DNA of 64,000 bases from Eledone cirrhosa (taxonomy: Eukaryota): NCBI GenBank assembly GCA_964016885.1, contig OZ024742.1, positions 45,260,001 to 45,324,000 on the forward strand, in the 5' to 3' direction. Below the pieces are notes generated by a model. The model saw only the letters and a list, made by a program, of their open reading frames with translations. It was not told where the DNA came from and searched no databases. This document shows, piece after piece, positions 18,605 through 22,682 of this stretch (position 1 is its first letter; every line of letters begins with the position of its first letter). The position numbers were made by a program, and so were the translations under genes.

Positions 18605-18993
18605 GACCCCTTAGCCTTTGTCAAGGCAGAATTCTAGGAGAAGGAAAACTCTGATATAACACCTGCAGCCCTGATGGTATCCAATGATGTTGACTTGTTA
18701 TTCTTTTTGGTAAATATCATCTTGGTTAAGAGAGTGGGACTGGCTTTGCTCACTATAAAAGCTTCACGGCACAGGCATTGCTTTATATCTGGATATCTCT
18801 CTGCACTTGTCGTTACATGGTGCCATGGGCCCAGCACTATGTGTCAATGATTGTCACAAGTGTAGTGTCTGTACCAGAGTTTTCAAGTCGCTGGCTGGAC
18901 TAAAAAGTCACACTCGTTCAGCGCATCAGTAGGGGTTCTCCTACATGGATATAAAGTAGTGGCCGTACTCGAAAACGAGTTGGCAGCCACCAT
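18605..18993 (+). mobile_element. Bipartite RTE-derived non-autonomous element (family A), 5' truncated
   Basis: 5'UTR-like part joined to [22 protein letters not shown] and a 3' end with (ATGT)n tail. Homologous to 24281-24735 and 24921-25485. Confidence 0.75.
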
Positions 18994-19004
18994 GTATGTA
19001 TGTA

Positions 19005-21998
19005 TGTTTTTCTGGTTTTATAATTTCACAAATTTTTACCAATAGAGAGTCGGTTTCTAACATAGACACAAGACTCTCATTGGAATTTACACAACATCAA
19101 CTAGGTAGATATGTATGTATGCATGCATGTGTAGATATGGATGTTATTGTATGTGTGGATGTGTATGTTTTGAGTTGTATGTGTGCATGTGTATATGCTT
19201 TGTATCTGTACATGTGTATATGCAGTTATTAAAATTTTTGAATGTTTTACATATTTTTACTGTTCCATTAATGGATTGTACTTGTAATTTCCTAACTAGT
19301 TGTGTTCTTTCTGTTCCTGTGAAGCCTAGCTTCTCAAGATTTGTATTGAGGCAGTTACTAACATACCCCAGTGCCCCAATAATCACAGGCATAAATCTGA
19401 AGGTGTAATCAGGGTGGAGTATCTGCAGATTTCTCATCAGTTCTGCATAAATATTCTCCTTTTCTCTAATCTTTGATATTATATTGGCATCTGCTGGGCA
19501 GCTAATTTCCACTACTGTGCATGCTTTCTTCTACCTGTCCCATATCATAATATCTGGTCTGTTATGCCTGCATTTTATTGGGGTTTTTACTGGAACATTC
19601 CACCAGTACTCTTTCATATTAAGTACATGGATGTCTTCCACATTGCTGTAGCTTTTAATGTGTTTATTATCGGGGTTATCTTTTTTACGAACTGCATTGT
19701 ACAGTGTTTTGGCCACTACATCATGCCTCATAGGTAGATAGTACCTCGATGACATCTTTGGAAAGCTGCTGATGACATGGGTGATATCCTCGATGTTAGT
19801 TCTGCAGAGTCTGCACTTGTTATCACATCTAGGTGTTTTGCCTGCATCCCTATCTCTTTTGTGAATCAGGTATTTCGTGTTAATCTCCTGTTCTTGGGTT
19901 GCAAAAGTGTATCCTTCAAAGTGGGAGCCAATATAGCGGTTGTTAGTCCAAGATAGAATACTTTCCTTATCTATATTACTCTCACTCTGGAGCTTCCTGG
20001 CAACATATCCATGCATGATATTTTGCTGATAGGCATGCAGTTTTTCATCCATGGATTCACTGCGATACTGGTGAGCGACTTCCCTGGGTGTGAGTTTTTG
20101 ATTATCATACAGGGAATATCTCTCGAGGAGTTCCTTCCCAACTCTCATGATCTTATCTGTTTCATGCAGATAGACTTGCTCGAGAAGCGGGCTCCTACAC
20201 TTCGAGGTTCGTAGATGTTGTCGGAGAGATATGATGCGACATTCAAATGTTGTCTGGACTGATGTTTGGCCTCTGCCTCCCTGCTTACGTTTCAAGTAAA
20301 GGCGATCTATGTCACTGTTGATGTGGAAGTTTCCGGTGTTGTTCAGTATTTTACGAGTTCCAACATCAACTGCTCGGATTTCGTCTATCGTCCAATTGAG
20401 TATTCCAAACGTTGGTGTTAGGACAGGCACAGCAAACACATTGTGAGCCACTGTTTTGTTTTGCGCAGAGAATTCCGATGACCAGATCTTTCTTAATCGG
20501 GTGTAGTATTCCCTGGTTACGCGTTCTTTATTACAGATACCATTATAGTATATGTTCTCATCTATCCCCAGGTATCTGTAGCAGTCCTCATCAGATATCG
20601 GTGAACAGTTAGGCCATTGATGACAATGTTGCTAGATTGGGTTGTTGTTTTTCCCCGCTTTACAGTCATGTATGAGCATTTATCTTGGCCCAGCTCCATT
20701 CCTATATCCTCTGAGAACGTTGTAACCAAGTCAAGATTTTTCTTCATCCCATCCATGTTCTTGGCATAGAGTTTCAGAATGTCCACAAAGAAATTATGGG
20801 TTAGGTTCGTATTTCTGTCCTCCTGTGAGCCAATGATGTATCCCTCACATTTCTTTAGCAGAAAGAACAATGGTTTAATGACAAGATGAATAATATCACA
20901 GAGAGACTGTTCCCTCTGAAATATATCCCTGCAATATTTTATTTTATCAGTGAAAATAGAGTCCTCCCTCTCTGTCTTTAACCTGAGGATAGTAGCCCAA
21001 GAAGATGACAGCCTCTCTGTGGCTCTGACAATAATGTCTGGGACTTTAGCAAGTTGGAGGGCCTCTATCATCCAAGAGTGGGGAACAGAATCGAAAGCTT
21101 TCCTGTAGTCCAGCCAGACTATAGCCATATTCCTCCTAAGTTGTCGCACCTCCGACATCGCAGTTTTTTTTTATTAGGAGTTGTTCAGCACGTCCCCAAA
21201 CCCCTTTCTTTCCAGCTGCTTGTTCATCTGTGATGATGTTATTATTTTCCCAGTGATCTTGGAGGAATAGGTTCAGGCAGGCTGTATACATCTTATACAT
21301 CAGGTTCTGACATGCAATGGGTCGGTAGTTTTTTGCCAAGTGGGTGTCTTTGTTCTTGGGGACCAGTAATGTTTGTGCTAATGTCAACCATTCTGGTATA
21401 AGTGTATCTCCCTTAAGAACTTGTTGGTAGAGGTCAGTAAGACACCTCCGATAGAATATCAGTTTTTTGTACCAGTAGCCGACAATTATGTCTCTTCCTG
21501 GTGTTTTCTTATCTTGGAGTTTTCCTATCACAGTCTCAAGGGTACCCTCACTTATTTCGTATGTTTTTGTTGTAGTGTAGGAGCAATAGTTCTGTTGGAT
21601 TTCTTTTACCCACACTGCATCTTGGTTGAAATTCTTCTTTTCACCCCATATTTTGCTCCAAAAGGAATCTATGTCCTTCTGGGATGGGGCCTCAGTGACA
21701 CTTATTATTTTGTTCTTCATATCTCTATAGACTGATGTTTGATTTCGTCTGAATCTTTTATTAAGCACTTTTCTCTCATCTACCTTCTTCAGGTATCGGC
21801 GTTTTTCGCTAACAGCTCTCAATTCTTGTTTGAGGGTGATCAGATTATATTGAAGAGTTCTGGTTCTACTGTTACCAAACATCGTCTCTATTTTATTTTT
21901 CACTTTGTTGGTGAGGAGTGACGTTTTTTTGTGTTTGTTTGTATGTAAGGAGCATTGTCACATATCCTATGGTTTTTCGTAGGTCAGCAATCTGTTTT
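19005..21998 (-). mobile_element. R4/Dong-clade non-LTR retrotransposon (RT + CCHC + restriction-like endonuclease), frameshifted
   Basis: NYRPIAC, WLDYRKAFDSVPH, HNFFVD(I), CRLC...H...RHD, NRPDIMIWD..VEISCP...KENIY and PVIIGALG across four ORFs. Flanked by (TATG)n on both sides. Confidence 0.85.
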
Positions 21999-22045
21999 TA
22001 TGTATGTATGTATGTATGTATGTATGTATGTATGTATGTATGTAT

Positions 22046-22114
22046 GTATGTATGTATGTATGTATGACAAAAGGTGGAAGAACTCATAAGAGTCAATGGT
22101 CATCCAAAAATGTG

Positions 22115-22170
<56 letters not shown>

Positions 22171-22682
22171 TATGATTAAGTATATATGTAGATGCATGTG
22201 TGCACGTGTATGTATATGCGCGGGGACATAGAAATAGCCGGGCTGGACACCCGATCGCGTAGTTAAACCACTGGGAGTGAAGGACCCCTAGCCTTTGTCA
22301 GGGCATTCTTCTAGGAGAAGGCAACTCAGGAAACTGGGATAATTCCGATATAAAACCTGCGGCTCAGTAGTTACCGATGATATTGATCTTTTCTTCTTTT
22401 CGGGTTATAGCTACTGTCGCTCAGAGAGTGGGATTGGCTCAGAGCACAGTTTTTCCTCACTTTAAAAAATATCTTCACGCAGAGGCATTGCACAATAGAT
22501 ATATATTCTCGCCTGTCTTCTAGTCCAGCAGTCGCAAGCGGTGGGAGAGACCGTCATGACGAAGGCCAGTTAAGCCTGAAATGCATAGACAGTTGTCCCC
22601 CTTGCTCCTGCTAGACATCACCATTAATAATGGTATATCGTGCAATGACCATACTCGATAACGAGGGGGCATCCATCATCAT
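22046..22682 (+). mobile_element. Bipartite RTE-derived non-autonomous element (family B)
   Basis: Inverse homology to 9391-9770. (TATG)n before and (ATGT)n tail after. Confidence 0.7.

Follow-up and report, generated by a model that had tools for sequence, protein, structure and literature searches.

How do retrotransposons of different clades come to lie one after another within a simple repeat? We addressed this question in a 64,000-nt stretch of the Eledone cirrhosa genome (assembly GCA_964016885.1, contig OZ024742.1, positions 45,260,001 to 45,324,000 of the forward strand; hereafter the window), in which a Dong-like long interspersed nuclear element (LINE) lies antisense between two RTE derivatives, all bounded by TATG repeats. 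The original prediction had described this chain, which is present in the window sequence, and had proposed that the RTE tails create the target on which the LINE depends, forming self-feeding insertion hotspots. We consider it likely that the two clades instead co-target existing CATA/TATG arrays, on opposite strands.

A retroelement chain in TATG repeats

The chain consists, in order, of (TATG)19, an RTE derivative named RTEa (+), (ATGT)4, a 5′-truncated copy of the Dong-like LINE, Dong1 (−), (TATG)17, a second RTE derivative, RTEb (+), and (ATGT)4. It starts in a TATG array at 18458–18605 (+), which is imperfect over 18458–18529 and continues as the perfect (TATG)19 at 18530–18605; an RTE 3′ end was sought on the left side of this first perfect run and none is there. 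RTEa (18606–18993, +) is a 5′-truncated non-autonomous RTE derivative, comprising approximately positions 205–612 of a 612-nt element, and its 3′ end is separated from that of Dong1 by the (ATGT)4 spacer (18992–19007, +). Dong1 (19008–21998, −) retains ~3.0 of 4.1 kb and carries the reverse transcriptase (RT), CCHC, RHD and PD..E motifs of a LINE of the restriction-like endonuclease (RLE) type. The (TATG)17 at 21999–22066 (+) joins its 5′ junction to that of RTEb (22067–22682, +), a 5′-truncated bipartite derivative in which the 5′ untranslated region (UTR) of an autonomous RTE is joined to its last 45 nt. The second (ATGT)4 (22681–22697, +) follows RTEb and ends the chain. The order of insertion at this locus is not readable from the sequence, and the contigs of four public runs on 22560–22890 gave no empty allele and no contig spanning the stretch.

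Three LINE 3′ junctions lie in the window (11780|11781, 15768|15769 and 19007|19008) and share one plus-strand register, ...ATGT|T(C/T)TTCTGG; the flank at 15768, ATATATGT, has one mismatch relative to the pure repeat. The common phase and orientation of these ends had been predicted and were confirmed, with the junctions placed 2–4 nt from the predicted positions. The first belongs to a Dong1 3′ stub of ~36 nt (11781–11816, −), which comes after (TATG)9 and is followed by a TATG array. Before it, within a long TATG array, is the 3′ end of an autonomous RTE (11483–11742, +), with the last C2H2 finger, a microsatellite-rich 3′ UTR and a terminal CATCAT. The interval 11483–11816 is a second RTE-tail/Dong junction in the window, which the original prediction had not included. 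Also absent from it was the state of the Dong1 copy at 15769–16384 (−), which is internally deleted, joining the 3′ ~240 nt to the 5′ ~355–360 nt, and which retains both element ends between TATG-type flanks. The copies at 15769 and 19008 were considered as one duplicated insertion, and this was set aside, as their likeness is 85%.

Internally deleted Dong1 copies (3′ ~240 nt plus 5′ ~355 nt) make up three of 40 scored hits; such copies lie in the window and in two loci sampled elsewhere (L261:1313–1929, minus strand, and L262:1333–1898; such loci carry L numbers below). Their breakpoints are alike, not identical, and they are perhaps a small non-autonomous family.

Dong1 is selective for (CATA)n

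We compared the 3′ flanks of 78 distinct Dong1 3′ ends, all outside the window. Fifty-three adjoin an exact ATGTATGT, a match made by 0.06% of background positions, and 67 are within one mismatch of it. A single end adjoins (TA)n, which Dong1 nearly avoids even though ATATATAT has a 26-fold higher frequency in evenly spaced sequence totalling 1.19 Mb. Insertion into (TAA)n, the mark of Dong elements in the strict sense, is not the habit of Dong1, whose flanks are of the ATGT type (67/78); no TAA motif is present among the 12 commonest 3′ flanks, which cover 71 of the 78 ends. At the 5′ junction, TATGTATG was found within 40 nt in all 23 full-length ends and in 26 of 40 truncated chain ends, against a background of 1.1%. 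Since the repeat stands at both junctions, it is the target and not just a tail, and Dong1 is strongly (CATA)n-selective. The (CATA)n-specific Dong family that had been proposed is upheld in this form, as a selective and Dong-like one; the CATA run is not simply the element's own tail with 5′ junctions in random sequence, as these junctions lie within the repeat.

A second family, Dong2, has the same (CATA)n repeat and the same polarity. Copies of Dong2 (L104:3394–4340, L349–L377) are often in the same chains as Dong1, and L104 contains tandem units. An element named RTEe, first taken for another RTE, proved to be Dong2 in antisense. The evenly spaced sequence contains five Dong1 3′ ends (a sixth match is without a true 3′ end), and a rough extrapolation to the 3.0-Gb genome gives ~10^4 copies of Dong1. 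The Dong1 3′ UTR holds its own TATG-like tract ~105–125 nt from the end (window 19109–19133). Tandem 154-nt Dong1 3′ pieces in L016 end at this tract, which suggests self-insertion of Dong1.

Full-length Dong1 copies are ~4.1 kb long. The open reading frame (ORF) of the window copy is split by two frameshifts and one stop (21136–21957, 20562–21170, 19531–20631 and 19144–19530) and matches RVT_1 with E=8e-9. The copy in L240 has an intact 964-aa frame, which matches RVT_1 in Pfam (E=3e-24) and carries a CCHC knuckle, RHD and PD..E..K; the C-terminal Dong1 motifs, read directly, are CRLC..H..C, RHD and RPD..E..K. R2 proteins are the sole PDB sequence matches of the L240 protein, and its CCHC/RH region aligns weakly to R2. 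Pfam gave no match to an apurinic/apyrimidinic endonuclease (APE) domain in the Dong1 frame, and no N-terminal zinc finger was seen by reading or by Pfam. The first 115 residues are predicted to form three confident helices. This model best resembles SANT/SLIDE/Myb-like folds, weakly (Z up to 5.9, root-mean-square deviation of 4.1 over 71 residues), and Foldseek returned nothing at E≤0.001, with a Myb domain as the top match (E=0.46). The R4/Dong clade is described as having an N-terminal SANT/Myb-like module without zinc fingers (PMC7998251). Dong1 shows 32% identity, over 940 aa, with a Bombyx mori protein that has no family name (P0116). In a quick RT tree of 39 rows, with a poor outgroup and no curated Dong, R4, Rex6, R2 or NeSL references, it groups with unnamed proteins and with Argonauta hians proteins (55–56%). 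For all these elements we presume the clade names Dong, R4 and RTE from their layout and from what is generally known of these clades, not from a named database match. The LINE works like Dong and is a putative member of the R4/Dong clade.

Probable insertion of RTE derivatives into existing TA and TATG arrays

RTEa is made up of an RTE-like 5′ UTR, the last C2H2 finger, in a CSVC..H..H frame, and the 3′ UTR, and ends in GCAGCCACCAT. Over its 3′ 182 nt it shares 94.5% identity with the 3′ end of a longer RTE in L110 that codes for zinc fingers. RTEb is related to an autonomous RTE in L124, with 91% identity in the 5′ UTR and 95.6% in the last 45 nt; the L124 element has APE (Exo_endo_phos) and RT (RVT_1) in one ORF, and C2H2 fingers. 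Within the window copy of RTEb are an internal (AT)n expansion (22118–22173) and a 122-nt insert (~22500–22621), at a site that holds a short element in other copies. We take these partners of Dong1 to be of the RTE clade from this layout and from the 5′ UTR and C-terminal fingers characteristic of RTE. The 5′ truncations of RTEa cluster at positions 195–210, close to an internal ATG in agreement with the target repeat (window 18603–18610; L016, L017, L026, L135, L242 and L258).

There are 30 RTE 3′ ends in the evenly spaced sequence (36 matches less six of Dong2). For the flanks we used 50 copies that were not selected for Dong. The 5′ flank is a microsatellite by rule in 36 of these, against a background of 6.5%. 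The other 14 flanks comprise five variant microsatellites, three unresolved continuations, four chimeric or inverted copies, one LINE 3′ end and one near-array (13 nt off); inspection of these 14 revealed no tail enclosed by a duplication of unique sequence. Flank and tail agree in type (TATG/TATG 22, TATG/TA 4, TA/TATG 2 and TA/TA 7; p=0.0013). Informative duplications of at least 9 nt are present in 12 of 85 cases, relative to a shuffled mean of 4.0 and a maximum of 10 in 500 shuffles; seven are at least 12 nt long, compared with 2.1 after shuffling, a count reached by three of the 500. Several duplications start at the terminal AT of the element; ATGTATGCATGCATG, ATGTAAGTAT and ATATATGTTTATATAT are examples that contain variant units. 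From the flank-matched tails and the variant-unit duplications it follows that the RTE “tail” is mostly target DNA. These RTEs probably insert into existing TA/TATG arrays, and what follows them is mostly duplicated target. Two further sites in the window agree with this: a full-length RTEb (9392–9918, −) flanked on either side by (TA)n, and two tandem RTEa copies (24279–25487, −) with (CATA)n between them and (TA)n as outer flanks.

Dong and RTE insertions cluster on both sides of Dong

We compared Dong junctions with a random sample of 186 arrays, where RTE 3′ ends lie to the left of 16 and RTE 5′ junctions to the right of 16. The Dong-selected loci are top-scoring matches and not a random draw, with one junction counted per locus. 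An RTE adjoins the Dong 3′ junction in 19 of 58 cases, relative to 13 of 170 for random arrays free of Dong (p=1e-5). Clustering, the part of the predicted hotspot that this comparison bears on, therefore stands. It is equally marked on the other side, where an RTE adjoins the Dong 5′ junction in 17 of 55 cases against the same 13 of 170 (p=4e-5), and the two sides are alike (p=0.84). One-way dependence on RTE tails predicts an association on the 3′ side alone.

That RTE insertions lay new (ATGT)n tails which Dong needs or strongly prefers is, in our estimation, improbable. The 3′ clustering speaks for it, as do its persistence for short spacers (below) and the window itself, where an RTE end precedes the Dong 3′ end in two of three cases. 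There is also a precedent: lepidopteran RTEs are reported to generate microsatellites, at sites that are not sequence-specific, with the repeat placed between the element and its duplication (PMC2887409). Against these points, 39 of the 58 Dong 3′ junctions are without an adjacent RTE end, the adjacency is symmetric overall, and the RTE tails copy the type of their flank and are target duplications. The lepidopteran arrangement, with a repeat between the RTE 3′ end and a duplication of non-repetitive DNA, was not found here; unlike the elements described in that account, these RTEs duplicate the repeat itself and have a microsatellite as 5′ flank too. The proposal that RTE tails create the target of a dependent Dong is not sustained, given the junctions without RTE, the equal 5′ side and the entry of RTEs into existing arrays.

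Several observations weigh against plain co-targeting. When arrays were stratified by perfect-run length, the excess of RTE 3′ ends at Dong 3′ junctions stayed (Cochran–Mantel–Haenszel odds ratio 3.2, p=0.004), which keeps part of the hotspot claim alive; for runs of three units or fewer, the adjacency is 5/16 against 5/125. The spacers of 3′/3′ pairs are shorter than those on the 5′ side (p=0.03), a difference that co-targeting does not predict. Fourteen of the 40 truncated Dong chain ends are without TATGTATG, and some of these resemble alignment or chaining failures or later insertions. Informative Dong target-site duplications do not exceed those in shuffles (10/84 against a mean of 10.0). 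In two RTE copies a TATG tail goes with a TA flank, which leaves room for some added repeat. Lastly, the share of random arrays without an adjacent RTE end on the tail side (170 of 186, 91%) is an upper bound, obtained with a library of six RTE sequences that diverged RTE ends may escape.

The stratified result could reflect co-targeting with a directional preference, in which cutting is favoured ~13–30 nt from the 3′ end of the other element; for example, Dong might read CAT-GTATGT at a fresh RTE junction, or an RTE might cut beside a Dong end. Only the 3′/3′ excess survives stratification, the 5′-side excess being gone (odds ratio 1.8, p=0.36), and spacers of 13–29 nt occur in eight of 19 3′/3′ pairs compared with one of 17 on the 5′ side. 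These counts are small, however, and stratification by post-insertion run length is biased, since spacers are fragments of longer arrays that were split. Longer repeats at 5′ junctions would yield the same asymmetry, and pure repeats cannot reveal the order of insertion. We regard such a preference as unlikely, though somewhat less so than target creation by RTEs.

Array length and abundance bear on a third explanation, without true targeting, in which elements enter DNA broadly, persist in neutral regions rich in repeats and have TATG seeded or expanded at their ends afterwards. Dong or RTE adjoins 18 of 31 long perfect arrays and 14 of 131 short ones (p=8e-8), as expected if these elements prefer long arrays or if arrays lengthen once an insertion is made. 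Among tetranucleotide arrays ACAT leads (51, compared with 14 for AAAT), and Dong is without informative duplications; all of this would agree with passive accumulation. The fixed register at Dong 3′ ends, the repeats at truncated 5′ junctions, the avoidance of the much commoner (TA)n, the strict polarity and the RTE duplications that copy variant units all argue against it, and we consider it highly improbable.

Two observations on age and placement speak for co-targeting. The median pairwise distance is 3.7% for RTEa, 4.2–4.5% for Dong1 and 6.3% for RTEb, and the periods of activity overlap. In 204 kb of Dong bodies no nested RTE was found, though other short elements have inserted there; about five would be expected if all RTEs were younger and inserted at random (P=0.006), and if half were younger the probability is P=0.08. 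No insertion order was obtained from variant repeat units in ~35 chain maps.

A proposed model for growth of the chain

In the model that we propose, the RLE of Dong, perhaps guided by a putative N-terminal Myb-like module, makes its nick in (CATA)n in one register and reverse transcription is primed at that site. The APE endonuclease of the RTEs would nick AT-rich alternating DNA, be it (TA)n or (TATG)n. Pairing of the terminal CAU of the RTE RNA with ATG in the target could give duplications of 10–23 nt and no repeat tail of the element's own. The strand asymmetry of the repeat would then fix the opposite orientations of Dong and RTE. Each insertion would split one array in two, and an RTE would duplicate part of it, so that usable array ends increase and chains may grow by independent, repeated insertions into existing arrays. 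The outcome would be a weak feed-forward that runs both ways, in place of a dependence of one element on the other.

A stronger version is conceivable, in which two Dong-like RLE families and an RTE swarm form a self-amplifying niche, reading one asymmetric repeat from opposite strands, with one of them preferring the fresh 3′ junction of the other and arrays split and lengthened until ACAT became the dominant tetranucleotide. We hold this to be possible but doubtful. If true, these RTEs would be a lineage that targets microsatellites within a clade whose insertion is described as non-specific.

Relation to known elements

Dong1 resembles the Dong elements of the R4 clade (Bombyx Dong, DongAg, snail DongBg and ostracod Dong1/2) in its single ORF with RT, CCHC and restriction-like endonuclease. 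It is also like them in that no N-terminal zinc finger is seen, in its predicted three-helix module and in the microsatellite at both junctions. Known Dong elements are described as targeting (TAA)n (PMC3812793, PMC7998251), whereas the target of this family is (CATA)n. Ends were examined in 17 of 80 metagenome relatives of Dong1. The closest relative (48%, L268:1–60) and one at 38% (L270:1–60) have (TACT)n, partly TACA, on the 5′ side; six distant relatives (28–37%) end in (TAA)n, and the remainder are uninformative or have other repeats. The (TACT)n-flanked relatives and the (CATA)n family suggest a branch that seeks tetranucleotide repeats. The (CATA)n family adds a new target to the known Dong group, whose members seek TAA, and is in that sense an extension of known biology and not a system of a new kind. 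A Dong-like endonuclease that chooses (CATA)n over the far commoner (TA)n, with relatives at (TACT)n and (TAA)n, offers a natural series for the study of target change in retrotransposons with restriction-like endonucleases.

In octopus genomes, Dong-R4 and RTE(-BovB) LINEs are reported to be abundant (PMC9115989, PMC8967140, PMC13282606). The parts of these accounts consulted here give counts and activity and not targets, polarity or co-clustering. A microsatellite is described as filling the 3′ UTR of an O. vulgaris RTE, as in the L124 RTE. Eight supplement files of PMC9115989 were searched for a motif of these elements and gave no match, with four others outside the search.

The RTE derivatives share 3′ ends on simple repeats, 3′ microhomology and short non-autonomous derivatives with the lepidopteran RTEs (PMC2887409) and with an RTE-related SINE/LINE (PMC6007223), as described there. 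Their insertion fits the 3′ microhomology priming discussed in the latter source. The usual reading of RTE tails is reversed for this genome, the tails being mostly duplicated target; this bears on the annotation of repeats, on microsatellite markers and on how the repeat load of octopod-type genomes is explained.

Other non-LTR (long terminal repeat) elements that target microsatellites include Waldo, Mino (AC), Kibi (TC), Koshi (TTC) and Togen (TG) (PMC3812793, PMC4640811). They are likewise described as using a multicopy simple repeat as a landing site. Unlike the elements studied here, they belong to other clades and have other motifs, and the parts of those accounts at hand mention neither (CATA)n nor an RTE partner on the opposite strand. 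In the literature searched, which excluded Repbase and Kojima and Fujiwara 2004, either of which may already record the target, no (CATA)n Dong target and no RTE/Dong co-targeting were found.

Other features of the window and of sampled loci

An LTR-like element (16408–18454, +) is inserted in the TATG array beside the deleted Dong copy. It has 363-nt direct repeats that are 99.7% alike, a primer-site-like motif, TGGTGACCCC, at ~16777, and no long ORF; a second LTR-like copy (40019–42031, −) is 82% alike. An imperfect 70-nt repeat tract at 15697–15768 recurs at ~18462–18545 with ~90% likeness, so that the two flank the deleted Dong copy and the LTR-like element, and is possibly a long duplication made at insertion.

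A short element of ~180 nt is present within Dong and RTEb bodies, inserted at sites rich in ATT/TTA and with duplications of 10–20 nt (L063, L071, L078, L080, L081 and L089), and similar sequence is present in the window at 10943–11115 and 13538–13980. A third R4-like RT-endonuclease family (L124:10–3170, +) faces the autonomous RTE of that locus tail to tail and is far from Dong1 in the quick tree.

A 44-nt satellite array extends from 50288 to ~63000, with at least 260 overlapping windows in register. Minisatellites occupy 39074–39852 (42 nt) and 42183–42874 (49 nt), and a near-perfect inverted repeat at 8094–8480 has 191-nt arms and a 5-nt spacer.

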